A stretch of DNA of 64,000 nucleotides from Acidobacteriota bacterium (GTDB taxonomy: Bacteria; Acidobacteriota; CAIWXX01), in assembly GCA_040755995.1 (NCBI GenBank), contig JBFMAF010000003.1, positions 64,001 to 128,000 on the forward strand. The letters are read 5' to 3'. This document shows, one piece after another, positions 3,444-21,699 of the stretch; within the stretch, counting starts at the first letter, position 1; each line of letters opens with the position of its first letter. The notes below the pieces were generated by a model. It was not told where the DNA came from, ran no database searches, and was given only the letters and a program-made list of their open reading frames with translations. A program made the translations under genes and the position numbers.

Positions 3444-3899
3444 TCACGGGCGCGACTTGCCTCCTGGCCGCTGACGCGATGCGCGAGACCGTGCCAGAGC
3501 GCCCCTGATTCGTCGAACGCAGCGCGACTCGTTCCTGTGCGTGAGTTCGTGCTGCCATATGCGAACGACACGCCATCCCGCCTTCCGCAGCGCACGCGTC
3601 ACGCGCCGGTCCCGGGCTTTGTTGGCCGCCAGCTTCCTCTGCCAGAAGGCGCGATTCGAGTCTGGCAGATGCGAGTGCTCTGGGCAGCAGTGCCAGAAGC
3701 ACCCGTCCACGAATACAGCCACATTACTCCCGGGGAAGACGAAATCGGGTCTGCCGTATAGCGGCCAGCGTCGTCGCCACCCGGAAATCTTGTGGTGTCG
3801 GAACAACCCGATCAATGCGAGTTCGGTCTTCTTGTTGCACCCTCCACGAACGTGGGACATGATCAACGCACGCTTGGCCTTGCTGTAGATGTCTGCCAC
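3444..3899 (-). CDS. vsr: Very short patch repair endonuclease
   Basis: MADIYSKAKR..IMS, GRPDFVF, VFVDGCFWH and GWRVVRIWQHE motifs; adjacent to a C5 methyltransferase. Confidence 0.95.
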   Translation of the reverse strand: MADIYSKAKRALIMSHVRGGCNKKTELALIGLFRHHKISGWRRRWPLYGRPDFVFPGSNVAVFVDGCFWHCCPEHSHLPDSNRAFWQRKLAANKARDRRVTRALRKAGWRVVRIWQHELTHRNESRCVRRIRGALARSRASRQRPGGKSRP

Positions 3900-3913
3900 T
3901 TTCCGTCGACAGT

Positions 3914-4990: not shown

Positions 4991-4998
4991 GAGCCGAG

Positions 4999-6114
4999 TC
5001 AGGCGCCCTTGCCCGCCTTGATCGTCCGAATGATCTTCTCTGTGAAGTCGGCTGCGTTGGTCACGGGCATTGCCGGCCTTCCGCACACTTGTACGTAGGC
5101 CCATGCGAGCTGTTCGCGGAATGGGCTGTCAATGGAGCAGACTCGTACGAAGTCGCGCCCGGCATCCCCGTCTGTTAGGTCGATGGCAGTCAACGGAACC
5201 AGATGAAGATCTTTCAGATCGACCGCCATCAGCGGGATGTGATCCGGGAGGCCCGGGAGGATTCTCACGCCTTCTTGTTGGTCGCGTGTGACCTCCTTCG
5301 GTAGCCTCTCTCGCAACTTCTTCTCAGCCGTCGTGGCGTCAAGACCCACCTTCTTGAGCCACTTCGAGACACGATCGCAGCGGGCAACCAGGGCCTTCTC
5401 GACCGCGCCCTGGCTCACAACCAGGTCGCAGGAAGGCGAAAGAACTACACGAAAGGCGCTTGGCTCGTCCGGGTCTCCCCTCGTTTCCCGCAGTATGTCT
5501 CCAGTCAACAGGTCCGAACTCAGAGGGGGATAGATGTACTGCTCCCAGGCTTGCATCCGCGTGCCCCCGTAGGTCGGCGAGTCAAACGAAGCCGCCAGCC
5601 GCCTGCGAGTGAGACGAACGAGAATATCGCGCCGGTCATTCTCATTCGCCGCCTCCTTCCATACCAGGAGGCTGACATGCCGGAGTGATTCGGCTGCCTT
5701 CATGGCGACTTCATCATTGAATGCACGAAGACTGTCGACATGGGTGCGGTATGATGCCAGCTTGTCAACCACTCGCTCCTGGCTGTCCGCTGTCTTGGGC
5801 TGGAAGCACACGAACGGATGCTGTTGTTTCCCCTCCAGGAACGTAGGCATGTCGCGGGCGCTGTGAACGACGACGGGGCAGAAGTGGACGTCCCAAATGT
5901 GCTCCCAGGTGGCCCCCGCACTTGCCGTCGATCCTGTTTGGTCCTCGAAGACGTCCATGATCACAGCATCGGGTCGCAGCGACTCCACAGTGGTCCTGGC
6001 TTTCTCGAAGCCCGTCCCCTCCACCTTGACGTCGTCCAAACGTGTTTCAAGAACCGACCTCAGACTGTCGATCATGGTGGGGTCGTCCTCGATGATGAGA
6101 ACAGTGAACCTCAT
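4999..6114 (-). CDS. Response regulator receiver protein with a non-HTH C-terminal domain
   Basis: LIIEDD and VIMDV receiver motifs; C-terminal LLTGDIL...VLSPSCDL domain; directly downstream of the kinase. Confidence 0.8.
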   Translation of the reverse strand: MRFTVLIIEDDPTMIDSLRSVLETRLDDVKVEGTGFEKARTTVESLRPDAVIMDVFEDQTGSTASAGATWEHIWDVHFCPVVVHSARDMPTFLEGKQQHPFVCFQPKTADSQERVVDKLASYRTHVDSLRAFNDEVAMKAAESLRHVSLLVWKEAANENDRRDILVRLTRRRLAASFDSPTYGGTRMQAWEQYIYPPLSSDLLTGDILRETRGDPDEPSAFRVVLSPSCDLVVSQGAVEKALVARCDRVSKWLKKVGLDATTAEKKLRERLPKEVTRDQQEGVRILPGLPDHIPLMAVDLKDLHLVPLTAIDLTDGDAGRDFVRVCSIDSPFREQLAWAYVQVCGRPAMPVTNAADFTEKIIRTIKAGKGA

Positions 6115-6123
6115 GTCAGTTGG

Positions 6124-8292
6124 TCACCTCGAAGCAATGGGCAGGTCGAACCTGAACGTTGCTCCGCCCAGCTTCCCGGGGCTCTTCACGCCCATCTTTC
6201 CCCCATGACCGAGGATTACTTCCGAGGCTATCGTGAGCCCCATCCCAAAGCCATTGGGGCGTCTCGTGACTCCCGGTAGGAAGATGCGAGTCTGGTCTTC
6301 CCGATCAACGCCCGGCCCCGAATCGTGTAGGAGGCACAGTATCCGCCCCGCCTCCCCTGTCGGCCGGGTTTCGAGAAGAATCCTTCGGGTCCCGTCCTTG
6401 GTGCGTCCCAGCCAGTACAACGTATTGTCGAGCAGGTTGTACAGCACAGTCCACAACTCACCGGGGTCGATCCTGAGCGAGTCAACACCCCTTAGGCTCG
6501 TATCGCACCTGACGCCCAGTTGGCGCAGTTCACCGCCCTTCGCTTCGAGGCATGCAGTCCATATCTCCCGTACAGACGCCTCGCGTTTGCCTCGCGCGAA
6601 GGTGCGACTCGCCAGAGGTCGGAACAACTCTGCCAAGCGACCCAGCGCCTGTACTGCTCGCTCGGCAAGCTCGGTGTGCTTCTGCAAGAGTGTAACATCG
6701 CGATTCGAACCCACGAAGAAGTCACGAACAAGCCGCAGGAACGCCCCGATGATGCTTACATTGTGCCCCACTTCGTGAACGAGTTTCTGAGCGATCGTCC
6801 CGATGCTAGCCAACCGGCTGTAGTAGCTGAACGTGGTCTGCAACTCCTTTTGGATCCGTTCTACCTTGCCGCCATAGTCCGCCAACAAGGGCACCATCTC
6901 GGAGGCAGACCCACCCTCTGCCACGACCTCCCGCGCCTGGGCGAGCAGTGGCTCCGGTGAGAGCTCGCGAAACATGTCGTGCATCGGCTTCTCCTCGGTT
7001 ACCTTGTCCTGGGCCCGTTCGGCCTCAAGGACACTGACCGTGTAGAGCAGCACATGTCGGAATTCCTTCGCCTCGGGTGTGTCAACGAGCCTCTCCCGAT
7101 CGCTCGTGTCCTCGATCTTCGTGTTCACCTCAGCCGAAATCGCAACATAGCCGACTATCTGGCTGGTACTTAGGCGACGCCCAACCAGGCTGACACGCCG
7201 AAGATCAAGGCCGAGCCAGTCCCGGTTCGTCTCGGACTTCGGCAGAACCAGGACCCCATCGCGATACAGAGAGAGACCTTTGAAGGACCGGATCTGACTC
7301 CTGAGATCCGAACGCGAAATGGAGAAGAGCTGTTCAGCCTCTTCGATGCTTTCCTTCTCAAAGTCCCAAGCGCGGACCTCGAAATCGAACGGCCCACACG
7401 TGGGCCTCAGCTCGTCTGCCACCTTGAAGTCGTAGTACCGCTCCAGGTCCGTCCGGATTTCGCGCCACGAGTAAGAGTTCCTCTGACGTGATCTGCCGCG
7501 TCCGTGGTATGGACGGAAAACATACTTGTACGACAGCTTTCCATCCGCCCCGAACTCACCCGTCAGGCGGTAGACCGGCTTGTCCAAGAACTCCGAGGTC
7601 TTGACCTCCATCGGGACCGCTAGCGAGCCGGGAGCCGTGAGGTAGATGGTGAAATCCAGCAGCTTGGAGAACGGTGATACCAAGCGGGAAAGCCCTTCAC
7701 GTAGCTCCTCCACTCGTTCGGGCGTCCACGAGGACTTCAGAAAGATGCGCAGTCTGGTTCCCGATTCGTGGGAGAGGTCCTCAGGTGGGTGTGCAGCACG
7801 GCGTGCAGAACACACGTTGATGTCTTGTGCGTTCGCGAGGTCATCCCATGACACATCCACCTTCCAGCACTGCCCGCCGGCGGTCTTCGTGACAAGTTCC
7901 AGCCGTGTCCCGAGTCTGGCGACCGACAGACGTCCCAGTCCCTTTGCGCCGGTCACGCGTCGCAGTGCATCTCCGCGCCTGGAGTGCTTCGCTGTCAGCC
8001 GGAATGGGGTTGCGACCGTGCACCATACCTCGTCTATGGTCTTGTCGTCCATGCCGTGGCCATTGTCTTCAACTTCGAGCACCGGCCGGCCAGTTTCGTC
8101 CTGGGTGAAGCGCACGTCAACTCTACGCGCGAAAGCGTCGTAAGAGTTCTTCACCTGTTCGATCACGGCAACGACATCGCTTGTGACGAGGTCGGCGCCC
8201 AGAGCAGCGAAGACACGCGGATGCAACTTGAATGGAACGTGAATCCCGGCTGGGCGTTCGCTCTCAGACTTGCTCTGAGATGCCATCTTCAT
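6124..8292 (-). CDS. GHKL (MORC/MutL-like) ATPase fused to a histidine kinase
   Basis: N-terminal EQVKNSYDA, DNGHGM, GAKGLGRLS; C-terminal HEVGH, NLLDN, DSGPG, GFGMGL. No TM segment. Start at 8292 or 8286. Confidence 0.9.
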   Translation of the reverse strand: MKMASQSKSESERPAGIHVPFKLHPRVFAALGADLVTSDVVAVIEQVKNSYDAFARRVDVRFTQDETGRPVLEVEDNGHGMDDKTIDEVWCTVATPFRLTAKHSRRGDALRRVTGAKGLGRLSVARLGTRLELVTKTAGGQCWKVDVSWDDLANAQDINVCSARRAAHPPEDLSHESGTRLRIFLKSSWTPERVEELREGLSRLVSPFSKLLDFTIYLTAPGSLAVPMEVKTSEFLDKPVYRLTGEFGADGKLSYKYVFRPYHGRGRSRQRNSYSWREIRTDLERYYDFKVADELRPTCGPFDFEVRAWDFEKESIEEAEQLFSISRSDLRSQIRSFKGLSLYRDGVLVLPKSETNRDWLGLDLRRVSLVGRRLSTSQIVGYVAISAEVNTKIEDTSDRERLVDTPEAKEFRHVLLYTVSVLEAERAQDKVTEEKPMHDMFRELSPEPLLAQAREVVAEGGSASEMVPLLADYGGKVERIQKELQTTFSYYSRLASIGTIAQKLVHEVGHNVSIIGAFLRLVRDFFVGSNRDVTLLQKHTELAERAVQALGRLAELFRPLASRTFARGKREASVREIWTACLEAKGGELRQLGVRCDTSLRGVDSLRIDPGELWTVLYNLLDNTLYWLGRTKDGTRRILLETRPTGEAGRILCLLHDSGPGVDREDQTRIFLPGVTRRPNGFGMGLTIASEVILGHGGKMGVKSPGKLGGATFRFDLPIASR

Positions 8293-8362
8293 GGGCGTCC
8301 TACGTTCGACCGGAACTAGCATCAAGAGTATCACGGAGTCCGATGTAGCGACAAGTGTGTCT

Positions 8363-8407: not shown

Positions 8408-9109
8408 TCAGAGAAAAAGCTCCTTCAGTTTCGCATCATCGCGCTTCAGATCATCTGGCGATCCATCGAAGGCCATCTTGCCGAGCTTCATCGAATACAC
8501 CCGGTTGCAGATTCCCAAGACTTGGCGGACTTTCTGCTCAACGACTAGAGTGGTGACTCCGCTCCCGCGGTTGATCTCTGCGATTGTCGCAAAAACGGTT
8601 CTGACAAGATCGGGCGACAGGCCGAGGGATGGTTCGTCAAGCATCAGCAGCTTCGGCTCAGGAACGAGAGCGCGCGACAACGCCAGCATCTGTTGCTGGC
8701 CGCTAGAGAGCCTGCCGGCGTCCTGGTTGATGCGCTCTTTGAGTGTCGGGAAAAGGTCCAACACGTACGCGATGCGTTCTCTGGCTGTCTTTCGTTGAAG
8801 CTGGTACCCCGCGATTTCGAGGTTCTCCATCACCGTTAGGTCGTGGAAGACGCGGCTTCCTTGGGGTGCGTAGACAATCCCGCGAGAGACGTTGTGCGCG
8901 GGCGTAGCACCTGCGGTCGACGACCCGCAAAAACGTATCTCGCCCTTCCATGGCGGAACCAAGCCGCACACGGCTTTCAGCACGGTGGACTTACCCGCCC
9001 CGTTGGGCCCTATGAGCGCTACGACCTCACCCTGACGGACCTCCAAGGACAGACCGAAAAGTACCTGCTTCTTGCCATATCCGGTCTCCAGCCTCCCGAT
9101 TTCCAACAT
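8408..9109 (-). CDS. livF: Branched-chain amino acid-type ABC transporter ATPase
   Basis: GPNGAGKS, LSSGQQQM and MLDEPSLGL motifs. Confidence 0.9.
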   Translation of the reverse strand: MLEIGRLETGYGKKQVLFGLSLEVRQGEVVALIGPNGAGKSTVLKAVCGLVPPWKGEIRFCGSSTAGATPAHNVSRGIVYAPQGSRVFHDLTVMENLEIAGYQLQRKTARERIAYVLDLFPTLKERINQDAGRLSSGQQQMLALSRALVPEPKLLMLDEPSLGLSPDLVRTVFATIAEINRGSGVTTLVVEQKVRQVLGICNRVYSMKLGKMAFDGSPDDLKRDDAKLKELFL

Positions 9110-9117
9110 CTGGATGC

Positions 9118-9876
9118 TCAGTCTATGTATGCTTCGATGACCCTAGGGTCGTTCCTGACCTCGTCGGGTGGACCCTCGCCTACCATGACGCCCGCGTCCA
9201 TGAAAATAGCCCGGTCGCACACCGTCATCACCGCATCGAGGTTGTGTTCGATGAGGATCACTGACTTGCCTCTCGACGGCAACCCACGGATTGTCGCCAG
9301 GATTCTCTCGGTCATTTCCGGCGCTATCCCAGCGACGGGCTCATCAAGAAGCAGCACCTCGGATCTGGCTGCCAAGCAGCATACAAGGCTCAGGATTTTC
9401 TGCTGTCCATAGGACAGCTCCACTGCCGGGTCACGTGCTTTGTGCGCCAAGCCTGCCTCCTCTAAGAGAGCCAGGGCCTGTTTCCGATGTTCATTCTCTC
9501 GTCCCCGAATGCGCCACCAGTTGAAGAATATGTTCCTCAGCTTCTCACCTGGCTGGTTTTGAAAACACAGTAATACGTTGTCTAGCACGCTAACCTGACG
9601 GATGAGACGAGGATTCTGGAAGGTCCGGCTGATCCCCTGGTTCGTGATGCGGTAGGGTGGAGCACCCGTGATGTCTTTGCCCTTGAAAAGAATCGTTCCG
9701 CGGTCGGGTGCTATGAATCCGGTCACGAGGTTGAAAAAGGTGGTCTTCCCGGCTCCGTTGGGGCCTATGAGTCCCAGTATTTCTCCATGCCGAAGAGAAC
9801 AGGAAAAGCTTGAAAGCGCCTTGACGCCATCGAAACGCTTGTCCACTGCTTGGACATCCAGCACCACTGCGTTCAT
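9118..9876 (-). CDS. livG: Branched-chain amino acid-type ABC transporter ATPase
   Basis: GPNGAGKTT, RTFQ, LSYGQQK, LLDEP and VIEAY motifs; TGATG overlap with the upstream permease. Confidence 0.9.
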   Translation of the reverse strand: MNAVVLDVQAVDKRFDGVKALSSFSCSLRHGEILGLIGPNGAGKTTFFNLVTGFIAPDRGTILFKGKDITGAPPYRITNQGISRTFQNPRLIRQVSVLDNVLLCFQNQPGEKLRNIFFNWWRIRGRENEHRKQALALLEEAGLAHKARDPAVELSYGQQKILSLVCCLAARSEVLLLDEPVAGIAPEMTERILATIRGLPSRGKSVILIEHNLDAVMTVCDRAIFMDAGVMVGEGPPDEVRNDPRVIEAYID

Positions 9877-10760
9877 CACCGGCCATCCACCCCAGGCAAC
9901 GTATACTCGCCCAGCAGCCCTCGCGGCCGCCACATCATGAACGCGACCAGTAGGCCACCGTAGAGAATCTGCCGGATGTCCGCGGCTGCTGAGCTGGGTA
10001 GCCCTAGAAACCGAATGAGCTCAGGGAGCAGTACCAGCACAGCCGCCCCAACCACGGGCCCCCAAAGGCTGCCGGCCCCGCCGACAATCACGGTGGAGAT
10101 GATGAAGATCGATTCCATAGTCGTGAAGCTGGTAGGATCGACGAAGCTGATATAGTAGGCGTGCATCACTCCCGCCGCAGCAGCCATACCTGCCCCGATG
10201 ATGAAGATTAGCACCTTGTAGGTGGCCACGTTCTTGCCGGCCGCTTGGGCGAAGATCTCATCTTCTCGGATGGCCTTCAGCACACGCCCGAACGGAGAAC
10301 GGACTATCCTCTGGGTCATGCTCAGGGTGATAGCGCAAACGATTCCGACAACTACAAGGAAGCCTACATGTGAGGAAATCGACAAGCCGAATAGCATCGG
10401 CTGAGGAACTCCCGGAAGGCCCATGGGACCACCGGTCAGAGCGACCCAGTTGTTGAAGACGCTGAATGTGATGATCTGGAACGCAAACGTCGCAATCACG
10501 AAGTAGTCATCGCGGATGCGTAGGGATGGGATGCCCACCGTCGCGCCGAGCAGGGCGCCAAGTATGATGGCGCAAACAAGGTTGATCAGGAAGCCACTAT
10601 GTACATTGAGCGCCATGAGCGCTGCAACATAGGCCCCAACACCGTAGAACGCTGCATGCCCGATAGAAAGGAGTCCGGTGTAGCCGGCGATGAGGTTGAG
10701 GGACACCGAGAGGATGACATAGATAGCTGCCAGGATCATGATATGCAGCACGTATTCCAT
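9876..10760 (-). CDS. livM: LivM-like ABC permease
   Basis: SLNLIAGYTGLLSIGHAAFYGVGAY, LTGGPMG and SPFGRVLKAIREDE motifs. Confidence 0.9.
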   Translation of the reverse strand: MEYVLHIMILAAIYVILSVSLNLIAGYTGLLSIGHAAFYGVGAYVAALMALNVHSGFLINLVCAIILGALLGATVGIPSLRIRDDYFVIATFAFQIITFSVFNNWVALTGGPMGLPGVPQPMLFGLSISSHVGFLVVVGIVCAITLSMTQRIVRSPFGRVLKAIREDEIFAQAAGKNVATYKVLIFIIGAGMAAAAGVMHAYYISFVDPTSFTTMESIFIISTVIVGGAGSLWGPVVGAAVLVLLPELIRFLGLPSSAAADIRQILYGGLLVAFMMWRPRGLLGEYTLPGVDGR

Positions 10761-10772
10761 CTTGCGTCTCTC

Positions 10773-11657
10773 TCACGCCGACGATTTTCTCAATCGCTTT
10801 CCCAGGATCCCTTGAGGGCGAAGCAGCAAGAAGGCCAACAACAAGAGGAAAGCTGCCGCTTCTTCCCAATGCGTTCCGAGATTCCAGCCAGCAAGCTCCT
10901 CAAGGAAGGCGAGGAGCAGAGACGCTACGGCCACGCCGATGGTCCTCCCGTTTCCGCCCACGACAACAGCCACCACTCCCTGCAACAGCATGGGCAGGCC
11001 CATAATAGGTGTCATCCCCACATCAAACGCTCGAAACAACCCCGTCGCACCTCCCAGGAATGACCCAAGGCAAAACGCAATCCCGATGATCTTGTCGCAG
11101 TCAATCCCGCTTACCCTCGCCAGTTCAGGGCTGTCTGCCACGGCTCTCAGAGCCAATCCGATCCTCATTTTGTCTACGAGAAAAATCTTGACGAACAGAA
11201 CTGCTACCGCGGCTCCCATCACCGCCACCTGGATGCTGGTTACACGGGCCCCCAGAAAGCTGTAAGAAGATGCAACTCCATGACCTGCAATGACCTTGGT
11301 ATCATCACCAAACGCAATCGATATGACGCTCTGAAGGACGGTATAAAGGCCGAGAGAGGCCAGCAACAAGACTAGCGGCGTCGCGCCGTCCCGCCTCAAC
11401 GGTCGGTATACGACCTTGTCAAGACTCCAGCCAAGTCCCGTACTAGCAGCCAGCGCGAGTACAACAGATGGCAAAGCCGACAGGCCGACCCACTGCGAAC
11501 AGGCCAAGCTCACGTACCCGGCGGTCGTGATGACTGCGGCATGGGCGAAATGGAAGAACCTGGCAGTCGAAAATGCTAACGAGAAGCTGATGCCCACCAA
11601 GAAGATGGTGGCAGCTGAGTAGAGGATGTTCGCCAGGAGCTGGGACCCTAGGGCCAC
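10773..11657 (-). CDS. livH: LivH-like ABC permease
   Basis: FHFAHA, GLALRAVAD, VVVGG and LRPQGILG motifs. Confidence 0.9.
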   Translation of the reverse strand: MALGSQLLANILYSAATIFLVGISFSLAFSTARFFHFAHAAVITTAGYVSLACSQWVGLSALPSVVLALAASTGLGWSLDKVVYRPLRRDGATPLVLLLASLGLYTVLQSVISIAFGDDTKVIAGHGVASSYSFLGARVTSIQVAVMGAAVAVLFVKIFLVDKMRIGLALRAVADSPELARVSGIDCDKIIGIAFCLGSFLGGATGLFRAFDVGMTPIMGLPMLLQGVVAVVVGGNGRTIGVAVASLLLAFLEELAGWNLGTHWEEAAAFLLLLAFLLLRPQGILGKRLRKSSA

Positions 11658-12922
11658 TTGGTGACACCGTTCAGTAGGTGGTCGACAACCACACCCACCT
11701 GGTCCTTCGGAACTACATACGGGGCCTCCCTACCATCGAGAGCCGAGAGATCGTTCTTGAACTTGCGGCCCCCTTTGTTTTCAGCCTCCTTGATCAGGTC
11801 ACTTGGGGTTGCAAACAACCTGTCGCAGAGCCCAAGCTCCACCGCCTTTTGCAGGTACGCAAAAGGCTTCCACCTTGCGTCGTTATCGTCGACATCCAAC
11901 AGAATCTGGGCCCTTTTCTCCCCGGGATCCCAGGATATCCCTATGCGTGTCCCTTGGACTTCGTAAAGGCCATAGTCGCCCCTTAACGCCTGCCCCAGTT
12001 CCGAGCGCTTGCCTATCTCTTTCAGTTGGGTAGCTTGGTCTGCTCTGTTCTCACCTACTTCGAGCATGCCCGGGTGGGAGAACCACAACTTCGTCCCTTG
12101 GAACTTGCTGAGGAACCTCCTCAATGCTTCGCGAACGTCGATGATACAAGTTCCATCCTGGTTATCGATCATGAGCCAGGCCGGGCTGGTTGTGACCTTG
12201 GCCACTAGCTCGGTAGATATGATGCTTAGCTTGTCCTCAAGGAGGAGTGTGTTGTAGAGGTTTGTGGGGAGATAGACGATGCGCAGAGCAGCGCCCTCAT
12301 AGGTACAGAACGCTGCCCATGGTGCTGGGTCCCCCCCTGTGTGCTCTCCAACAGAATGATAGACTGGTGAGAATGGGCATGTCCAATAGATACGTTCGAA
12401 GAGCTTGCCTTCCATGATGTCTTTGAGAGTTCCCTTGTAGCTATCCTTGTCCATGGCGAACTCCAGCGCGCCAAATGTCGCGCGGCCAAAGGCATGTAGG
12501 CATCGGGCCATCACGTATCGTGTTCGATGTGATCCAGCGCCCCTGACATGTAGCTGACGTAGCAAGCGGCCCAATGGCCTCTCATTGGGTGGTGCAGTGT
12601 CAGTGAGGTACATCAAGAGCGACCACTCTCGCCCAAACCCCGCTGCCACCTCTGCTTGCCAGTGGCTTTCGAGCTCGCGACACGCGCTCTCTGAGACAGC
12701 CCGCGCCAGATGCTTCGCCATCAAGTTGGCCAGTTCGATGACGAGCGTGAGCGCAGCCAATGTGTAGCCGAGTATCGATGCCAGGCGGTCGAATCGACCA
12801 AGATCCGCAAAGGCATCCCAACCGCCGATCACCAGTCCGAAGAAGATTATCAAGAAGGGCAACCAGGGAGAACGGCTCCCGCTCCACCACTCAAACGCGC
12901 GATACAGGTGGTCTTCTCTCAC
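11648..12922 (-). CDS. Hypothetical protein with two N-terminal TM helices and a soluble domain
   Basis: 424-aa ORF with GAGGAGG RBS, overlapping both neighbours; hydrophobic N-terminus. Confidence 0.75.
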   Translation of the reverse strand: MREDHLYRAFEWWSGSRSPWLPFLIIFFGLVIGGWDAFADLGRFDRLASILGYTLAALTLVIELANLMAKHLARAVSESACRELESHWQAEVAAGFGREWSLLMYLTDTAPPNERPLGRLLRQLHVRGAGSHRTRYVMARCLHAFGRATFGALEFAMDKDSYKGTLKDIMEGKLFERIYWTCPFSPVYHSVGEHTGGDPAPWAAFCTYEGAALRIVYLPTNLYNTLLLEDKLSIISTELVAKVTTSPAWLMIDNQDGTCIIDVREALRRFLSKFQGTKLWFSHPGMLEVGENRADQATQLKEIGKRSELGQALRGDYGLYEVQGTRIGISWDPGEKRAQILLDVDDNDARWKPFAYLQKAVELGLCDRLFATPSDLIKEAENKGGRKFKNDLSALDGREAPYVVPKDQVGVVVDHLLNGVTKWP

Positions 12923-13751
12923 GACCCCCTCCTCTAGACCCGTGGCTCCGACCGACCGCAGACTTTCTGGCCATCAGAATCGCCGCACTGGAGCGAGCAG
13001 CGTGGAACGCGTTTCCTGACCAGCTGCCCAGAACACAGATGTCGCCCTTGTCGAATCCGACCTGCACGAGCATGGAAGCCAATTCCTCCGCGGTGTACAG
13101 CCGAATCTTGAATGGAAGCTGCGTCACCTCGCTACCCGATTCATATTCGTAACTGCCAACCCACACGTGCCCGTCCTCCACGATCTTGGACCGCTTCCGG
13201 TACCGTAGGTGGTCGGCAAGGCCGCGTTCCTCGTTCAGCCTCCAACGTACCTGCCTCGCCCCGAAATTCACCTGTTCAAGTATGAAATACCCACCCGGCT
13301 CCAAGACCCGGAAAGCTCCTTCCAGTACTGACATATTCTCATCATGATCGGCGAAGTACCCCCACGACGTATCAAGGCACACCGCAAGTCTGTATTCCCT
13401 CGGCGGCCACCTCCAAGTCCGCAAATCCGCGAGTGTCAGCGTCACCTGCTTGCGTGCAGCTGCCGCACGCCGCAGCGCTTCCGAAAGCAATTCCGCCGAT
13501 TGATCAACACCGTGAACCAAGAATCCTTCTCGCGCGAACGCTAAACAGTGTCGGCCGTAACCACACGCGAAATCTATCACCGGGCCAGGAGGGTTGATGC
13601 CGGTCAGGCGCGAGATGCTCCTGGCTTGCATGGCTGCGACACGTCGTGGCTTCCGAATCTGATCGACAAGGGCATACCTGAGATCAAACAGGTCCACATA
13701 CCAATCGTCTGGAACCGATCTCCAGTCATGTTGCCAGTCCAAGGCACTCAT
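12891..13751 (-). CDS. Class I SAM-dependent methyltransferase
   Basis: IDFACGYGRH, GVDQS, TSWGYF and LEPGG motifs; ATGA overlap with the rSAM stop. Confidence 0.9.
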   Translation of the reverse strand: MSALDWQHDWRSVPDDWYVDLFDLRYALVDQIRKPRRVAAMQARSISRLTGINPPGPVIDFACGYGRHCLAFAREGFLVHGVDQSAELLSEALRRAAAARKQVTLTLADLRTWRWPPREYRLAVCLDTSWGYFADHDENMSVLEGAFRVLEPGGYFILEQVNFGARQVRWRLNEERGLADHLRYRKRSKIVEDGHVWVGSYEYESGSEVTQLPFKIRLYTAEELASMLVQVGFDKGDICVLGSWSGNAFHAARSSAAILMARKSAVGRSHGSRGGGRERRPPVSRV

Positions 13752-14938
13752 TGTCGCACACCCAAGTTGAACGGGATGGTGTCACCGCGACGAGTACTCA
13801 CAAGATCAGGTGCCGATGAATGGCAGGTCGAGACCCGGCTGTCTAAGTAGAGGCACCTGTCGATCGTCCCGCTGAGGCATCTCTTGTGCATTGGCCCGCC
13901 GTGACAGAAGGACCACTCCTCGCACTGTGCACAAGGTCCCGTCTTCTTCCACTCGGCACGACGGAACGGTTCGTATCTGCCCTCCCAAACATCCTTGATT
14001 CGCTCACGGCGAAGGTCACCTTGCACGAAGCTACGTGAGATATTGCTGCAGGAGCTGAGTTTGCCATCAAATAGAACTCCAAGGTTGTTAAGCCCCGCAA
14101 TACAGTGAAACACAAAAGGGCGCAGACGGCCCTCCAACTCGGGGCCCATCCATCCGCCGCAGCCCAATTCCACCATGGTCACCGAGGAATCAGAGTAGTT
14201 CGAACACGAGCGCTCGTATTCCTGGCGGAGGAAACCGATGACCTCTCGCACTTGGTTCGCAGTCGGATAGAGATCCGAATTGCCCTGCGCACGTCCCTGC
14301 TTGTCGATGATCATCACCCTGAAGACCCTTGGTCGGATTTCCTGCTTCGCGAAACGATGAAACGCCGGGAGTTCGTGGATGTTCTTGGAGTGGGCCACGA
14401 AGGAGACCGTCACCACGTATCCGGCGTCAACCGCGAGGCGGGCGGCGTCGGTCGCCTTCGCCCACGTTCCTGGTTGGCCCCTCAAGGAATCGTGGCTTGA
14501 CTCAAAGCCATCGATGCTGATCCCCAAGCCGGTTACTCCCAGACTACTCAGTTCCTCGAGCACGCCCGGATTGTCGGAGAGGAAGACGCCATTTGTCTGG
14601 ATGTCGATGTTTCGATAGAAGGGCCAATGCGAGATGGCCCGTAGCACATCAAGGAGATCACGGCGAACGAACGGTTCGCCGCCCGTAATGTTGATGTGCC
14701 GGAACCGGTCCATGTCGAAATCGCGGGCGATCTCATCGAAGGCTCCGACAACTTCGTCGGTGGAGAGTTCGTCTGAGCTACTCACCTCCTCGCCTGGTGA
14801 GCCGCAGTGCAAACATCGCAGGTTGCATCGTCGAGTTGCTTCCCAGCTGATGATCTGGAGGGGGTGCTCCCTTATGAGGGCTTCAATCCGAGTCCTCCAG
14901 GTCTGGAAGAGAGCTCTTAGGTCCTCACCACGATTCAC
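13748..14938 (-). CDS. Radical SAM/SPASM enzyme (TIGR04133-like)
   Basis: CNLRCLHC, TGGEP; SPASM-type CIAG...SSC...CAQCEEWSFC. Confidence 0.9.
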   Translation of the reverse strand: MNRGEDLRALFQTWRTRIEALIREHPLQIISWEATRRCNLRCLHCGSPGEEVSSSDELSTDEVVGAFDEIARDFDMDRFRHINITGGEPFVRRDLLDVLRAISHWPFYRNIDIQTNGVFLSDNPGVLEELSSLGVTGLGISIDGFESSHDSLRGQPGTWAKATDAARLAVDAGYVVTVSFVAHSKNIHELPAFHRFAKQEIRPRVFRVMIIDKQGRAQGNSDLYPTANQVREVIGFLRQEYERSCSNYSDSSVTMVELGCGGWMGPELEGRLRPFVFHCIAGLNNLGVLFDGKLSSCSNISRSFVQGDLRRERIKDVWEGRYEPFRRAEWKKTGPCAQCEEWSFCHGGPMHKRCLSGTIDRCLYLDSRVSTCHSSAPDLVSTRRGDTIPFNLGVRQ

Positions 14939-15138
14939 TTGGCGAATACCACCTTGAAGTACTCGTTGCCGTCATCATTCGGGTGGCAGCCGTACATGTT
15001 GTTCACGTATTCCACTGGACTGGGCCATTCGAGCATCCGCTTTTTGAACTTGAGCACCTCCTCTTCACTCGCTGCGGGACGTTCACAGGCCTGATGGTCT
15101 TCGACCGCCTGGGATGTACGCCGTATCTCGATCCGCAT
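14935..15138 (-). CDS. 67-aa peptide, candidate rSAM precursor or partner
   Basis: AAGGAG RBS; stop overlaps the rSAM start (GTGA); fills the gap between the binding protein and rSAM genes. Confidence 0.75.
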   Translation of the reverse strand: MRIEIRRTSQAVEDHQACERPAASEEEVLKFKKRMLEWPSPVEYVNNMYGCHPNDDGNEYFKVVFAK

Positions 15139-15149
15139 TGGCTATCTCC

Positions 15150-16283
15150 TTAGCTGATGTCGACAGCTTGGCCGTTCTTGATGGTCTTCTTGCCGAAGGC
15201 CTCGGACTTGAGATCACCGTTGGGGCGGAAAGCGACTTCACCCGAAACTCCTTGGAAGGAGATCGCCAACAAGGCTTCGCGCACCTTCTCGGGGTCTGTA
15301 GTGCCAGCGGCCTCCATTGCCTTGAAGATGGCCATCGCTGCGTCGTAGGCATAGCATCCAAACACGTCCGGTTCCTCCCCATACTTGCCCTTGTATCGCC
15401 GGGCGAATTCATCAAATGTGGGGCTCGTACTCCCGGAAGGCGACGTGTAAAAGACACCTTCTGCCCCATCCCCGGCGACATTGCGAAATTCGGGAGACCC
15501 CCAATTGTCGCCTCCGAATAGTGGGACATTTAGGCCGAGTTCCTTCATTTGCCGCACAAACACTCCACCCTCTTTGGGGTAAGTAGGAGAGACTACCGCA
15601 TCAAGCATCTCCATTCCCTTGAGCTTTGCGATGATCGTGCGGAAATCTGCCGTGTTCTCCTGGACGCCTTCTGCATTGATCACCTGTCCGCCCAAGGCTT
15701 GGAATCTCGTCTGAAACCCCTCTGCGAGCGGCTTACCCCATGAGTTGTTCGTATAGACCACCGCGACTCTCCTTGCACCGGACTTGAAGACCCAGCCGCT
15801 CAGCACTTCTGCCTGCAAGTCATCGGCGGGAACGGTCCTGAAAAAGAATTCACCGCCCCGAGTCGAAAGCTGGGAAGATGAGGAAACGGGCGACATGAGA
15901 ACGACCTTGTACCTGGTCGCAAGGGGAGCAACGGCAAGACTCACGCCGCTCCCGGCCGAGCCAAATACGACGGGCACCTTGTCGATGGTGGCGAATTTAG
16001 TCATGATGCTGACCGCCTCTTTCTTGTCGTTGCGGTCATCCTGAAAGTCTACCACGATAGGCTTGCCGAATAGGCCGGCTTTGGCGTTCTGATCCTCCAC
16101 GGCCAACTCAATCCCGCGCTTCGCCTTCTGGCCGTATGAAGCAACCTCGCCAGTGAGGGGGAATGTCGCCCCGAGTTCAATCCTGTTGGAGGAGGGAGCC
16201 CGTGGCCTTGTTACCAGCAAGGCTACGGCGACGACGCCTACTACGAGGATCGCTGCTGCTACCCATCCCTTTCCTACCGTCAT
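15150..16283 (-). CDS. LivJ/K-type ABC substrate-binding protein
   Basis: N-terminal TM anchor; GATFPLTG, FFRTVPAD, YAYDA and FQGVSG motifs. Confidence 0.92.
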   Translation of the reverse strand: MTVGKGWVAAAILVVGVVAVALLVTRPRAPSSNRIELGATFPLTGEVASYGQKAKRGIELAVEDQNAKAGLFGKPIVVDFQDDRNDKKEAVSIMTKFATIDKVPVVFGSAGSGVSLAVAPLATRYKVVLMSPVSSSSQLSTRGGEFFFRTVPADDLQAEVLSGWVFKSGARRVAVVYTNNSWGKPLAEGFQTRFQALGGQVINAEGVQENTADFRTIIAKLKGMEMLDAVVSPTYPKEGGVFVRQMKELGLNVPLFGGDNWGSPEFRNVAGDGAEGVFYTSPSGSTSPTFDEFARRYKGKYGEEPDVFGCYAYDAAMAIFKAMEAAGTTDPEKVREALLAISFQGVSGEVAFRPNGDLKSEAFGKKTIKNGQAVDIS

Positions 16284-16607: not shown

Positions 16608-17024
16608 TCAAGCGTCGCTGGCCCGGCTGTTGAGAAGCCATTTCTTGTAATTCACAATGTCGCTCTTCGCGGACTCATGTGCCACGAGCGCAGCGAAGGC
16701 GGATGCCAGGCCGGCGACCCACAGGGCAATATCACGCAATCCCCATAGGAAGACGAAAGCAACCATAGCCAAGAGCGTCTTCACGCCATTCCTGCCAAAT
16801 CGGAACCCCGAGACCGCCAGGACCAATACTATCACCATGTGGGGGAGATCGCCCAACCCGATCTCATGCAGATCGGCAAGGCTTATCCTTCGGGAATGGA
16901 CGAGGGCGAGAAGCCGGGGGTCGGAGGCGAGGGGCAGCGCGACTGAGCACACGAGAACCCACGCCAACAGCCGGTAGTGTTTGATGGGTCGAAGCTCTCC
17001 CTCACGAGCTGCGAACACACTCAT
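16608..17024 (-). CDS. Small hypothetical membrane protein
   Basis: 138 aa with 3-4 hydrophobic segments. Confidence 0.5.
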   Translation of the reverse strand: MSVFAAREGELRPIKHYRLLAWVLVCSVALPLASDPRLLALVHSRRISLADLHEIGLGDLPHMVIVLVLAVSGFRFGRNGVKTLLAMVAFVFLWGLRDIALWVAGLASAFAALVAHESAKSDIVNYKKWLLNSRASDA

Positions 17025-17312
17025 CCTACCCCGCCATGATTGCTTGCTTCCAACATTCCCGCAGCCTACCTGATCCCTACCGGCAAAGCCGCACTACAAA
17101 CCGTCTCGTATCATATCACGAGAGCGCGAGGACGCGGGACTCTCTTCTTCCGTACCACCCCGTGCGTGATCGCCGTTTCTAGTCCGCGCTTCCTGCGCCG
17201 TTGGCACGGGTCGGCTCACTTGAAGACAACCCGTGTGATCGCCGCACTGTCCAACGGTCTGAACCGGACAAACACCGACGGCATGTTCAGGTTTGTCAGG
17301 CAGTCCGTGTTG

Positions 17313-18200
17313 CTATCTCTGCTCATGTCTGATGAAGGTCAAGATCGAAGGGCACTCGTCGGTAATCATACAAAGGACTAGCACCAGACCGACGACTCGG
17401 AAGATCCCATCCGATTTCTCAACGAGCGCATTCACTAGGACCCTTACATTGGGGCGGGCGATCGCCCGATCGATCTCAACCTGCAAAGCTTCGACCAAGG
17501 ACGGGACCAAGCTCTGACCGCGTGCCGTATCCACTCTCCGAATGCCGGCCACACCGGCCAACCATGTCTGGAGCTTCTGTGCGATGTCGGTCGCCTCTCT
17601 GAAGGTTATGGCCGAGCCCACCCCAGGCGCGGCACCCACGTGCTCCCTCGAGTTGCATGAAAGGAAGATCGGCAGTTTCCCCTGCTTCGTTGCCTCCCTG
17701 GCTAGGCCAAGCAGGCCGAGCCCACTGCCGTCAGGAAGCCGGAGAATCCCAGCGGCGTTGTGCCCGATGATAAGAACGATCTTGGCGGGTGCATTGGCGA
17801 TCGCCTTCCTCAGCACTTCGTCGCCACCCGTGTTCTCCAGGAATCTAAGCTCCGCGAAAGTACTGAGGAGATTCTGCTTCGCCTCCAGTAGTTCATCCGC
17901 TCTTGTCTGGCTGTAGACAGCTTCGTGACCGAACACGTTCTTGAACGGCACCTCTTCGGTGGGCACGATGGCGACCACCGCGACAGTTCGTAGGTCGGAC
18001 GCCGACAACACCGGAAAGGACAGCCGATTCGGATCCACCGCAACGTTGGGTGCAAGACGTTCCGTGAACTCCTCAGGCGATGTTCGTGCGAAGAGCTTCG
18101 AACATTCCTCACTTGTCGCCGAAGTCGGTACCCCGATGAGCAGAATCGCAAGTCCTGCAGAAGCGATCCCATCGCAGCTGCGCATGATCACGCACCTCAT
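17313..18200 (-). CDS. Exported protein with a possible divergent CHAT/caspase-like domain
   Basis: Signal-like N-terminus; LIIGHN and IFLSCNS strand-His / strand-Cys motifs. Confidence 0.55.
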   Translation of the reverse strand: MRCVIMRSCDGIASAGLAILLIGVPTSATSEECSKLFARTSPEEFTERLAPNVAVDPNRLSFPVLSASDLRTVAVVAIVPTEEVPFKNVFGHEAVYSQTRADELLEAKQNLLSTFAELRFLENTGGDEVLRKAIANAPAKIVLIIGHNAAGILRLPDGSGLGLLGLAREATKQGKLPIFLSCNSREHVGAAPGVGSAITFREATDIAQKLQTWLAGVAGIRRVDTARGQSLVPSLVEALQVEIDRAIARPNVRVLVNALVEKSDGIFRVVGLVLVLCMITDECPSILTFIRHEQR

Positions 18201-18201
18201 C

Positions 18202-18564
18202 TCAGCGAATCGCTAGATAGGCACGCAGGAGACTCTTGATTCCCGCGGGAGACGCACCCAGCTGCAGATCGCCACGATCGAGGAAGGCCGTGCCGACCTT
18301 CTTCATGAGGAGTGGGAATGCAAAACCGAAAAGCATGGCCGTTCGCGCAGTCGGCCAAGGATCTCCGTGAAACCAATAGTATGCGCCGGGCCCAGCGATA
18401 CCAATCATCACGATAGTGATGCCCCAGTAAGCGATCGACCGTCGCAATCGGCGGTACTTCGCGAGCTCCAATCTCTCTCTGACCTCCCAGTGGTGAATAG
18501 CCTCCTGGATTAGAGAGCCGAAGCAGGACGCAACCATGACCTCGAACCCTGTCTCAAGGCTCAT
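18202..18564 (-). CDS. 120-aa three-TM protein
   Basis: GAGGTGG RBS before ATG 18564; three hydrophobic segments. Confidence 0.7.
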   Translation of the reverse strand: MSLETGFEVMVASCFGSLIQEAIHHWEVRERLELAKYRRLRRSIAYWGITIVMIGIAGPGAYYWFHGDPWPTARTAMLFGFAFPLLMKKVGTAFLDRGDLQLGASPAGIKSLLRAYLAIR

Positions 18565-18581
18565 ATTTCCACCTCTCTGCC

Positions 18582-20372
18582 TCAGTGTCCCTGGCCTGCC
18601 TGCGACCAGACGCAATCCAGAAGCCCGACGGGCATCTGCAAGTGGGATGCCATCCATTCCCTGACATTCGTGGCGAACACTCTCCGATCAAACGAGTACA
18701 CTGCTGGGGCACTCTCCACCGCGGCCCCATCAGCGACCAAGTAGTGTGGCCCGGGCAGTGCCGCGACCCAGTCGGGATCGAAAAACGGAGTATCCCCGGT
18801 ATCCCTCCGTAAGACGGAGGTGCGGAGCGAAGCTTCCTCCACCGACATGCCTTCCTCCTCAAGGGTCTTGCGCACATCTGTCCACTCATCGCATAGGAAG
18901 AATACGAAATCGACGTTGTCAAGATACCCTGCGAGCCGGATGTCCCTGACCACCCGTACGAACTGCTGTGAGTAATGGCACCAGGATGCGACTGCGACCG
19001 GAATCTGATTGACTCCGATGATCAGATCGCGCTCCTGCCCAGCTTCGATGACCGGGACTGCTCGCTGCTCGACCTCTCTCTCCCAGTCGGCGAGCGGATG
19101 GCTCGAGCGTGACAATGCGGTGAGCAGGTCAGAGGCGATGTCTGGGGAATGATCGGCGATTTGGCGGAGGCGACGCTCGAAACGAGCAGGCTGTGGCCCG
19201 AGCCGTCCCAGAAGGGATGCTGCGGCTGTCCGAACCTCGGGGTACCTGCTCTGCATCATTTTCTCGACTGACGGCCACGCCCGCGAGAGGTCAACTCCGT
19301 GCGCTGCGAGCAACTCGAGTGCGCGGAGCTGCACGGTGGGATCCCAGTCGGTCAACGCTTTCACGACAGTGTCTCGGAAATCCGTGCCGCAAGCGCCGAT
19401 CGAGTTGAGGGCATCGAGGGCCGCGGCCCTCACCTCTCCCAGTGGGGCGACGGTGAGCCCGAGAAGGGCCGGAATTGCATCTTCCGCCCCGCGACCAATC
19501 GACTTCAGCGCACCGGCTGCCGCCACCTGGACATCGGTGTCATTATCCGTGAGCAGCGATACCAGGGAACTGACAGCGGCGGGTCTCTCCCGAAGCTCCT
19601 CTGCCTCGGCCCTCTTGTCAGCAGCCAACTCCTCGGGGGAGAGGAAGACTTTCTGCAGGGCTTCTGCCAATTGGCTCGTCGTCCTATCGGCATGAATCTG
19701 GCCAAGCGCTGCAGCCGCCTTCACCCGGACCGACCAATTCTGGTCTCGTACCATGCCTCGGATGGCAGCCAGCGCTGGGACTGCGTGTATGTCGAAGGAG
19801 GCCAGCGTTTCCAAGGCCATCTCTTTCACCCACGGGTGCTCATCACTCAGACTGCTGGCTACCATCTCTACCAGGCGATCATCGGGCGTAGCGAGTTTCG
19901 CGGCGTACTCTGCTGCTGCTGCACGCACGCTTAGAACCGGATCGCGCAGTAGGCTGCCGAGCGCATCTACGCTGCCCCTGGGACTGGCACGACCCAGGGC
20001 CTTCGGCACAGCGGCGCGAACCTCGGCCACCGGGTCTCTTGCCGCATCTAGCAATACTCCTCCCACCTGCTCTGGGGCTTGTGGGTGCGCCGCGAGTACT
20101 TCGACTGCGAGCAGCCGGATGGAAGGGTCTGGGTGCTTGACGGCCGCAACCAGCGACGGTACGATGCAAGCCGGAACGACGGCGTCTTCCTCAGCGAGGC
20201 GCTCCAGCGCAGGGGCAAGAACTGCCGGATCGCACCCCGCGAGTATCTCTACATTGTCTTGTCGAGCTGACGCAGGCACGTTGATGACGGCGAGTACCAA
20301 GAGGCCCGAAATGAGTGTGCTGAACTCTCCTGGCTTTGCTGCGGTACCCGAGGGCGTGGCGTGGATTCGCAT
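18582..20372 (-). CDS. Exported HEAT-repeat protein with a C-terminal thioredoxin-like (WCHYS) domain
   Basis: AAGGAG RBS before ATG 20372; repeated D...VR.AA..ALG units; VAVASWCHYS. Confidence 0.8.
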   Translation of the reverse strand: MRIHATPSGTAAKPGEFSTLISGLLVLAVINVPASARQDNVEILAGCDPAVLAPALERLAEEDAVVPACIVPSLVAAVKHPDPSIRLLAVEVLAAHPQAPEQVGGVLLDAARDPVAEVRAAVPKALGRASPRGSVDALGSLLRDPVLSVRAAAAEYAAKLATPDDRLVEMVASSLSDEHPWVKEMALETLASFDIHAVPALAAIRGMVRDQNWSVRVKAAAALGQIHADRTTSQLAEALQKVFLSPEELAADKRAEAEELRERPAAVSSLVSLLTDNDTDVQVAAAGALKSIGRGAEDAIPALLGLTVAPLGEVRAAALDALNSIGACGTDFRDTVVKALTDWDPTVQLRALELLAAHGVDLSRAWPSVEKMMQSRYPEVRTAAASLLGRLGPQPARFERRLRQIADHSPDIASDLLTALSRSSHPLADWEREVEQRAVPVIEAGQERDLIIGVNQIPVAVASWCHYSQQFVRVVRDIRLAGYLDNVDFVFFLCDEWTDVRKTLEEEGMSVEEASLRTSVLRRDTGDTPFFDPDWVAALPGPHYLVADGAAVESAPAVYSFDRRVFATNVREWMASHLQMPVGLLDCVWSQAGQGH

Positions 20373-20802
20373 TGTGTCCTTCTCCTTGTAATCTAGCCAT
20401 TGCCAGCCGAAGGCCTGGGCCGCGGCCAGCATGCGCGTTCGGCGATGCCGACCCCGGCTTCGGGGGGCGGACTCGCTAGGTACTGCGTGGCCGTAAAACG
20501 GATCGAAGGTAGCCGTTCTTGGGCTCCAGAACTTCGGCGGGCCTCGCACACGGCATGCCTTCGTCTGGAGCGCCCAGCGCTTGGCTTGAAGCAAGCGGCA
20601 AGAGATCGATCTCCGCATTGGCATAGCTTTCCACATCGTTCCCGAGTCGAGACGCCGTATGTCCGCGCGCTGGGCTATCATCTCCTTTCCCGGGCGATCT
20701 CCAGATGTGGCCCCTCGCAGCATTCGCGCATTCCTATCACCACCTGTAGCCGGACTTAGCGGTGGCCGTGGTTCGTCCCAAATGGTCCACCCCCTGCACC
20801 TT

Positions 20803-21699
20803 CTAGCCGACTCCCGCGGACCCCCCAAATCGCTGCCGTGCTTTCAATATGTACGCCACCTCGCGACCTGGTGCTTGGCGTTCAGCTTCGTACAGGGCGG
20901 CCCGCTGACGCACCACTTCGAAGGGTGCCTTGGCCATCTTGCCCCACTTCATCTTCACGAGGTCTTCGGCTATTTCGGCCGCCGTCGTCACAAGGACTTC
21001 GACGATGCCCTTCGTGCTCTTGATGCGATGTGACTTCATGAACTCCTCATACTCATACTGCAGGTGAAGCAGCTCATCTTCGAGCTCGTGAATGGGAACG
21101 GAGAGCTTGGCCACCTTGTTGATCCAGTCCTTGAGGCGCATGTGCTTCAGGATCGAGTCTGGATCTCGACGGAACTCGGCGATCGCCTCCCAGGGAGTCA
21201 GGTCAGACGGTGTAGGCAGCGCGTTGAGCGTAATGCGCACAACATCGCCCCTATCCGCCGGCGCGTCAATCGAGACCTGATTCTCCCTTCCTGCAGCCAC
21301 TGCGTCAAATTGTCGGGTCTCTCGGAGGTGAAGAGCAAGTTGACGGAGCCCGGGTCGCTGAATGCGCGCGGCCGGGCCAACACGGCCAGCGGCGATAGCC
21401 AGCACGCGGCCTATGCCCTGAAGGCCTACCACATCGGCATCCTGTGGGTCGGGGGTGACTTCGGGAAGATACTTCCGATCCGCTGCCCTTGTACCCTCAA
21501 CAGTCGTTAGCAGCCCCTCCTTGCGTAGGAACTCAAAATCGTTCTTGCCCAAGGAGAGTGCTCGCCGCTCAACAAGCGTCAGATGCTGCTGAGTCAGATC
21601 CAAAGCGAGCCGCTCGAACAGGAGGAGTAGCCGCTTCAACTCCCCTGGATCCGCGAAGGTGCTGGCTGCGATCACGGCGACGAACAACGGCATCGTCAT
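20803..21699 (-). CDS. Hypothetical protein
   Basis: 298-aa ORF with protein-like composition (LPTPSDLTPWE...APGREVAYI); ATGA overlap with the upstream ORF. Confidence 0.75.
   Translation of the reverse strand: MTMPLFVAVIAASTFADPGELKRLLLLFERLALDLTQQHLTLVERRALSLGKNDFEFLRKEGLLTTVEGTRAADRKYLPEVTPDPQDADVVGLQGIGRVLAIAAGRVGPAARIQRPGLRQLALHLRETRQFDAVAAGRENQVSIDAPADRGDVVRITLNALPTPSDLTPWEAIAEFRRDPDSILKHMRLKDWINKVAKLSVPIHELEDELLHLQYEYEEFMKSHRIKSTKGIVEVLVTTAAEIAEDLVKMKWGKMAKAPFEVVRQRAALYEAERQAPGREVAYILKARQRFGGSAGVG

Follow-up and report, generated by a model that had tools for sequence, protein, structure and literature searches.

A candidate splicease-like radical SAM system with an uncatalogued Tyr-Gly precursor peptide in an Acidobacteriota bacterium

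The window, a 64,000-nucleotide stretch of a contig from an Acidobacteriota bacterium, encodes a 67-residue peptide which is very probably the substrate of the adjoining radical SAM/SPASM enzyme. Our preferred reading, to which sequence comparison lends a probability of roughly 55%, is that peptide and enzyme constitute a two-component splicease-like system that would excise a tyramine equivalent at Met48-Tyr49-Gly50 of an uncatalogued precursor type. The reaction proposed here has precedent. Neither Pfam nor NCBIfam has an entry for the precursor family, the sub-lineage of the enzyme, its occurrence in archaea or the cassette of transporter, regulator and methylase. No account of TIGR04133, TIGR03913, the MYGCHP, VNNMYG or YGCHP motifs, or of a Woesearchaeota RiPP with a radical SAM enzyme was found in the literature searched, although Scott et al. 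2022 or its supplements may list the family. If the splicing reading is true, spliceotides would gain an uncatalogued precursor type and an enzyme lineage, ribosomal β-amino-acid formation would reach Woesearchaeota, Pacearchaeota and related archaea, and a small splicease of two components would become available together with a short candidate tag; in L023 and L030 the peptide occurs naturally fused to a larger protein. The cassette comprises the following elements.

15150..16283, minus strand: ABC substrate-binding protein of the Liv type (branched-chain amino acid family), whose gene immediately precedes that of the peptide in bacterial loci (NCBIfam, Pfam, related loci)
15146..15151, minus strand: ribosome-binding site AAGGAG, overlapping the stop of the binding-protein gene (sequence)
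14935..15138, minus strand: peptide gene, 67 aa, probable substrate of the adjoining radical SAM/SPASM enzyme, uncatalogued family (open reading frame and homologues)
13748..14938, minus strand: radical SAM/SPASM enzyme, 396 aa, forming a sister lineage of TIGR04133 and lacking an RRE-sized extension at the N-terminus (HMM, structure, tree)
12891..13751, minus strand: class I SAM methyltransferase, optional cassette member (Pfam, recurrence)
11648..12922, minus strand: 424-aa protein with a hydrophobic N-terminal region (weak similarity, indirect)
8408..11657, minus strand: LivH, LivM, LivG and LivF-type permeases and ATPases, end of the cassette (NCBIfam, Pfam, related loci)

The peptide gene and the conserved core of its product

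A sequence-only reading of the window had described this 67-residue open reading frame as a candidate precursor with a charged, helix-like N-half as leader and a C-half carrying WPS, YVN and HPN triplets and one Cys. The frame on the minus strand, the triplets (residues 38–40, 44–46 and 52–54) and the single Cys of the C-half (Cys51) are all present, with a second Cys (Cys18) in the variable N-half. The AAGGAG element precedes the ATG by 7 nt, and the peptide stop and the radical SAM start codon, GTG, share 4 nt; the same overlap is seen in 71 of the 105 loci whose stop could be read. Among 84 distinct homologous DNAs compared with the window over residues 31–53, codon positions 1, 2 and 3 differ 193, 275 and 976 times, and 757 codon differences are synonymous versus 348 non-synonymous. 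Because the differences fall mainly on third codon positions, the frame is, as judged from these comparisons, a genuine gene under purifying selection.

More than 130 relatives of the peptide were detected. A word-seeded search gave 136 proteins from 136 candidates, 120 of which, including the query, are among the matches listed; an unseeded HMMER search, clustered at 50%, yielded 55 representatives, of which two proved spurious. Neither Pfam nor NCBIfam holds a family for the 67-residue peptide, and NCBIfam produced only unrelated weak matches in 4 of 30 aligned members (E 0.07–0.17). For conservation counts we relied on 51 representatives from the search without word index, the word-seeded and pattern-seeded searches being biased towards the core motif. 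Positions 41–43 and 45–47 were set by the anchor pattern and their invariance is therefore partly circular, while Tyr49, Gly50, His52 and Pro53 lie outside the anchor. P0163 and P0169 were left out as repeat-rich chance matches, P0148 and P0162 were not scored by the anchor and L082 is truncated; the anchor also missed L014, L020, L116 and L120 (Asn47 replaced by Asp), all four of which retain MYGCHP.

The peptide can be divided into the following parts.

15058..15138, minus strand: residues 1–27, variable in sequence and length, predicted to be disordered, not a conserved leader (alignment, AlphaFold2)
14980..15048, minus strand: residues 31–53, conserved block of a basic helix, aromatic38-x-N/S40-P41, helix 41–48 and M-Y-G-x-H-P (alignment, model)
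14989..14997, minus strand: Met48-Tyr49-Gly50, predicted X-Y-G site of tyramine excision (conservation; function inferred)
14944..14961, minus strand: residues 60–65, C-terminal helix Y-F/L-x-x-x-F/Y, conserved and present once, following an acidic linker (alignment, model)

Conservation is thus not spread evenly along the chain but concentrated in residues 31–53 and in the helix from Tyr60 to Phe65, the latter being found in 53 of 53 representatives. Within the core, Tyr49 is present in all 51 distant representatives and in 106 of 106 locus cores. Gly50 is retained in 49 of 51 and 102 of 106, with Ala or Ser in the other 2 and 4, respectively. His52 is likewise present in 51 of 51 representatives and in 106 of 106 final units, Pro53 in 49 of 51, and residue 48, the X of XYG, is Met in 45, Leu in 4 and Ile in 2. 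This Met-Tyr-Gly site had been overlooked in the sequence-only reading. A helix is indeed predicted at residues 25–37; the leader assignment itself does not hold, since the duplication of the core also takes in a portion of the conserved basic helix, whereas the actual N-terminus shows no conservation. The Pro41 equivalent of the first unit lies anywhere from position 17 to 65 in 167 proteins, and the N-terminus is polar and devoid of a lipoprotein-like hydrophobic stretch. AlphaFold2 predicted short helices at 25–37, 41–48 and 60–65 and no strands (pLDDT 59, pTM 0.34), the model pointing to a peptide without a compact fold; a structural Atlas search with the peptide reached a best feature score of 0.75 at a TM under 0.5.

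In six relatives (P0056, P0132, P0142, P0151, P0173 and L031) approximately residues 34–53 are tandemly duplicated and followed by one C-terminal helix each. The first units of P0132 and L031 have lost the aromatic residues at 38 and 44 and that of P0151 has lost His52 (His to Arg), all three retaining YG; the first unit of P0173 is degenerate. A repeated core combined with one constant helix suggests the layout of a multi-site substrate, and the C-terminal helix possibly serves as a recognition (follower) element. The concentrated conservation and the duplicated core make it very probable that the peptide is modified by the adjoining enzyme, as had been supposed. Composition is a poor guide to the modified residues: three aromatic-x-(S/N) triplets arise in 4.5% of whole-peptide shuffles and in 6.9% of shuffles of residues 38–61, which places the three observed ones marginally above chance, and a single YG arises in 8.9%, so that neither triplets nor YG count from composition alone.

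The radical SAM/SPASM enzyme and the proposed excision reaction

The enzyme matches PF04055 and PF13186. Cys38, 42, 45, 260, 279 and 336 are conserved in 27 of 27 orthologs, Cys297, 339 and 345 in 26 and Cys362 in 25. Its best NCBIfam model is TIGR04133 (217.7 bits), followed by the next match at 101.1, TIGR03913 at 100.7 and TIGR04103, which we take to be IPR026482 (PlpX), at 84.3 bits. The curated TIGR04133 cut-off of 425 is reached neither by the window enzyme nor by two of its orthologs (214.8 and 235.4). The SPASM half alone also matches TIGR04133 best (96.9 bits), ahead of a generic SPASM model (33.5), and in the Atlas a TIGR04133 cluster is the structurally closest entry that bears a name (TM 0.84/0.94). 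Sequence identity amounts to 29–31% with TIGR04133 members and to 23% with a fetched TIGR04103 protein. A profile of the 27 orthologs scored TIGR04133-type enzymes at 182–221 bits, a NirJ-like protein at 130.9, TIGR03913-type enzymes at 125–131, TIGR04103 at 117, PqqE at 85–95 and MftC at 89; a PDB sequence search returned only distant matches to PqqE, SkfB and MoaA.

In a 36-row tree the enzyme family is sister to three TIGR04133-type enzymes (92/84), and after removal of 12 long or redundant rows this link rises to 100/98. The tree rows include no biochemically proven splicease sequence; XyeB, HaaB and YxdB, likewise absent from the rows, were compared through the NCBIfam listings. Deeper in the tree, a clade uniting the family with TIGR04133 and TIGR04103/TIGR03913 obtains 86/85 with two long unrelated branches inside, and in the pruned tree it becomes an open fork with PqqE. 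An archaeal radical SAM/SPASM enzyme (L143:1435-2502, G001) branches near the family and TIGR04133 (81/84), its locus containing no obvious YG precursor.

TIGR04133 enzymes are said to be proven spliceases, reportedly by Scott et al. in Chem in 2022. The systems of TIGR04133 and a "radical SAM-associated putative lipoprotein" from Bacteroidota and Treponema are also two-gene pairs with a Tyr-Gly partner, and the extra Cys before the SPASM domain (Cys260) is again Cys in two aligned TIGR04133 proteins, whereas TIGR03913/TIGR04103-type enzymes carry Asn. Partner lipoproteins with Cys-(x)-Y-G-x-P occur in three of three fetched TIGR04133-type loci. The TIGR04103 locus contains a Nif11 precursor with LYG, and in two DUF1843 loci examined YG, YA or YM stands near the N-terminus of the partner. 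The present systems differ from those of TIGR04133 in several respects: the enzyme attains half the cut-off; the partner is a peptide of 50–90 residues, not a lipoprotein, and in it Y-G-x-H-P takes the place of Y-G-x-P; a Liv transporter or Lrp and methyltransferases join the cassette; and archaea are among the hosts. The TIGR03913 systems (GDL-motif peptide, DUF1843) likewise involve short helical partners of 55–65 residues with YG or YA. The peptide in the window, however, does not match DUF1843 and its YG is internal, not N-terminal, and the long C-terminal extension of TIGR03913 enzymes is lacking. Complex prediction with residues 1–366 of the enzyme and the peptide alignment gave 0.57, 0.04 and 0.01 in its runs and is counted for neither side.

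Spliceases are described to excise a tyramine equivalent at XYG and to leave an α-keto-β-amide behind (PMC11414181, PMC9811515, PMC10849128, PMC11626197), X being natively Met or Leu according to PMC9811515. In PMC11002830, PlpX corresponds to IPR026482. The spliceotide systems PlpX/PlpY/PlpA and PcpXYA (type I) as well as RhaX/RhaA, RcsX and RasX (type II) share with the present one a radical SAM/SPASM gene beside an XYG precursor with Met or Leu at X, and precursors with several sites. Type I systems of the PlpXYA kind possess a Nif11 leader and a Y protein, both missing here. The binary architecture agrees with that of non-cyanobacterial types, which PMC11414181 describes as lacking a Y protein. 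Instead of a conserved leader the present peptide has a variable N-terminus and a conserved single C-terminal helix.

On these grounds we propose the following scenario. The enzyme would bind the peptide via its conserved helices 31–37 and 41–48 and the single C-terminal helix, and thereby Tyr49 would be placed at the radical site. A tyramine equivalent (C8H9NO, ca. 135.07 Da) would then be excised from the backbone and the chain rejoined as an α-keto-β-methionine amide between Met48 and Gly50. More speculatively, the optional class I or B12-dependent methyltransferases might modify nearby residues, e.g. His52 or Asn46/47, and the product might persist as a modified miniprotein that carries an electrophilic ketoamide or, alternatively, be trimmed by host proteases to something that the Liv transporter or Lrp regulator handles. 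Native spliceotide products are called still elusive in PMC9811515. All candidate modification sites are contained in the tryptic fragment of residues 35–62.

Splicing is favoured by the position of the conservation peak at M-Y-G-x-H-P, by TIGR04133 as the nearest catalogued family of the enzyme, by the Tyr-Gly sites in the partners of related enzymes, among them a 113-aa peptide encoded in the same genome, by the near-invariance of Gly50 as XYG splicing predicts, and by the survival of YG in duplicated units that have lost the aromatics at 38 and 44 or His52. Against it stand the open fork by which the deep tree joins the family to the PlpX-type TIGR04103/TIGR03913 clade, the NirJ-like protein scoring equal to TIGR03913-type enzymes, the score at half the TIGR04133 cut-off and the orphan peptide copies that carry the motif but adjoin no radical SAM gene. 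In addition, final units show no more variation at His52 than at Tyr49, and splicing needs no His.

Alternative explanations

The invariant His52 leads to an alternative which we regard as unlikely. The peptide would again be the substrate, and the chemistry centred on Tyr49 and His52 would, for example, either link Tyr to His across Y-x-x-H or resemble an MftC/PqqE reaction on tyrosine, with the B12 radical SAM enzyme possibly finishing a small amino-acid-like product. The distinct enzyme lineage, with its open position relative to PqqE, would accommodate this explanation, as would the recurring Liv importer or Lrp regulator and the B12 radical SAM gene, which 11 of 26 genome loci and 15 of 35 metagenome loci possess when those with at least 3.5 kb downstream are counted. 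However, TIGR04133 partners carry Y-G-x-P without His, the P0151 unit with His replaced by Arg keeps its YG, and Gly50 is nearly invariant, which is expected from XYG splicing.

That the peptide is not modified at all, but an accessory or activator subunit (a helix donor resembling PlpY) or a small regulatory protein, the enzyme acting on some other substrate, appears improbable to us. Its size corresponds to that of PlpY-type proteins (71 aa in L037) and it is helical, its conservation across bacteria and archaea is unusually strong, and five genome loci contain the motif without an adjoining radical SAM gene, two of these carrying it as a fusion with a histidine-phosphatase domain. On the other hand, Tyr-Gly is invariant, the core is duplicated in six relatives, no other recurring small protein was recognised as a possible substrate, and the Y-type gene of L037 has no YG. 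The folded accessory subunit considered in the sequence-only reading is also disfavoured by the predicted lack of a compact fold; a PqqD-like RRE fold or Pfam match is absent as well, although a single activating helix of the PlpY kind would be compatible with these results.

The triceptide interpretation put forward earlier is in our view very unlikely. The likeliest place for a three-residue cyclophane would be aromatic38-x-Asn/Ser40, and Tyr/Phe44-Val-Asn46 might hold another. It is the triplet at 38–40 that speaks for this interpretation: residue 38 is Trp in 36 of 51 representatives and Trp, Tyr, Phe or His in 49 of 51 and in 106 of 106 locus cores, residue 40 is Asn in 44 of 51, and aromatic38-x-(N/S)40 is retained in 46. 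Links between residues i and i+2 of the Trp-Asn, Phe-Asn and Phe-Ser type are recorded for XncB, OscB and MscB in PMC11002830. Yet residue 40 (Asn, Ser or Asp) precedes Pro41 at a predicted helix start, and a helix cap would account for its conservation. The other two triplets are not conserved: residue 44 is Tyr in 23, aromatic in 39 and non-aromatic in 12 of 51, the last group including L015, L029, L031 and L032 which are coupled to a radical SAM gene, and aromatic-x-(S/N) at 44–46 is retained in 39; residue 54 is Asn in 2 and H-x-(N/S) at 52–54 is found in 3 of 51. All three triplets together persist in 3 of 51. Although systems such as XncB/XyeB, OscB/GrrM, MscB/FxsB, HaaB and YxdB also employ a SPASM enzyme, the enzyme family belongs to a different lineage. 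The ortholog profile scored GrrM at 49.5, FxsB at 27.9 and HxsB at 26.3 bits, compared with the much higher values of TIGR04133-type enzymes; the triceptide/ranthipeptide branch is set apart at 100/97 in the 36-row tree and the triceptide-containing branch at 100/99 in the pruned one; and no cyclophane maturase family is found in the best 25 of 63 NCBIfam matches or among the 11 matches of the SPASM half. A sactipeptide- or ranthipeptide-like thioether at Cys51, the other earlier suggestion, is most improbable: Cys51 is present in 41 of 51 representatives but replaced by Ser, Ala, Thr or Asn in 10 of 51 and in 15 of 106 locus cores, including the radical SAM-coupled L010, L011, L013 and L028, and the enzyme groups apart from ranthipeptide maturases, ScfB and QhpD scoring 26.8 and 17.4 bits against the family profile.

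Distribution and gene neighbourhood

The system occurs in uncultured bacteria and DPANN-type archaea, the hosts by record title including Planctomycetota, Zixibacteria, Cloacimonadales, Armatimonadota, Woesearchaeota, Pacearchaeota and Iainarchaeum. The peptide gene is directly followed by that of the cognate radical SAM enzyme (42–75% identical) in 26 of 31 genome loci and in 70 of 74 metagenome loci, the latter being those with at least 300 nt downstream (80 of 95 metagenome loci were covered, some redundant). Of the four metagenome exceptions three repeat genome orphans, and in the fourth, L119, the radical SAM gene lies upstream; this rearranged locus (L119:1100-5908) has the order radical SAM, peptide, methyltransferase and also encodes a B12 radical SAM enzyme and a divergent regulator of the TrmB family. 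At L029:6149-8382, two tandem radical SAM paralogs follow one peptide, the first being 42% identical and without one SPASM Cys. Among 60 relatives of the host genome searched, the peptide was not found; its distribution is therefore patchy and it probably spreads by horizontal transfer. None of 14 pattern matches in viral contigs could be confirmed as the peptide.

The five orphan genomes, which are small and possibly incomplete, yielded no close ortholog of the radical SAM enzyme (best 27% identity). In two of them (L023:5362-6114 and L030:4244-4996) the peptide forms the C-terminus of a His_Phos_1 protein with no radical SAM gene nearby, a divergent Lrp gene upstream and genes with PEP-utiliser domains downstream. 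A second independent histidine-phosphatase fusion was suspected in P0148, for which Pfam gave no confirmation. The other three orphan copies (L007, L017 and L019) have an intact motif; the Bacillota label of L019 may be wrong, because RNA polymerase subunits and a NusA-like gene stand nearby in an archaeal-looking order.

The cassette partner is a Liv-type ABC transporter in bacteria and an Lrp regulator in archaea. The position immediately preceding the peptide gene is taken by a Liv-type binding protein in 12 of 28 genome loci and in 54 of 69 from metagenomes; for a divergent double-Lrp/AsnC gene the corresponding counts are 14 of 28 and 10 of 69. Class I methyltransferases recur; neither a protease nor an exporter was recognised among the recurring cassette genes, and the 31 genome loci contain no second recurring small gene of at least 70 aa. 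The recurring importer or regulator of amino-acid type and the optional B12 methyltransferase point to a biological role.

Between the radical SAM and Liv permease genes lie fast-evolving membrane proteins of at least three weakly related families. In one of them (e.g. L005:7302-8516) the soluble domain is modelled with a PLD/TrmB-effector-like fold, an assignment which rests on concordant weak matches and a VIA Z of 9.3–9.7; Foldseek gave no match at E 0.001 or better. The 424-aa protein of the window is weakly similar to this family (hhalign probability 80%) and has two relatives among the matches listed. As a rather doubtful idea, the peptide may be a scaffold for a small amino-acid-like ligand or cofactor built by the radical SAM enzyme (from Tyr49, perhaps with His52) and a B12-dependent or class I methyltransferase, which bacteria would take up via Liv and sense via the membrane PLD/TrmB fold and DPANN-type archaea would sense by the divergent double-Lrp, so that it would be shared across domains. 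A peptide-derived signal or cofactor would then link reduced-genome archaea and uncultured bacteria, possibly by non-splicing chemistry.

Several further genes surround the cassette. Directly after it (3444-8334, minus strand) follow a GHKL-ATPase/histidine-kinase fusion, a response regulator, a C5 DNA methyltransferase and a Vsr endonuclease, which look like a restriction or defence-type module, and a 732-aa protein with an N-terminal calcineurin-like phosphoesterase and an unassigned C-terminal portion is encoded at 936-3134 (plus strand). Upstream (16608-21699, minus strand), genes of 138, 295, 151 and 298 aa without clear families and one for a HEAT-repeat protein (18582-20828, minus strand) are not found in related loci. 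The same genome contains a second splicease-like pair (L049:1414-2928, G000:C16), in which a radical SAM/SPASM gene is followed by that of a 113-aa peptide with MYG, RYG and KYG; its enzyme scores 170.8 bits to TIGR04133 and groups with the TIGR04103/TIGR03913 clade, and genes for a PRMT-like methyltransferase and a TPR protein adjoin the pair.
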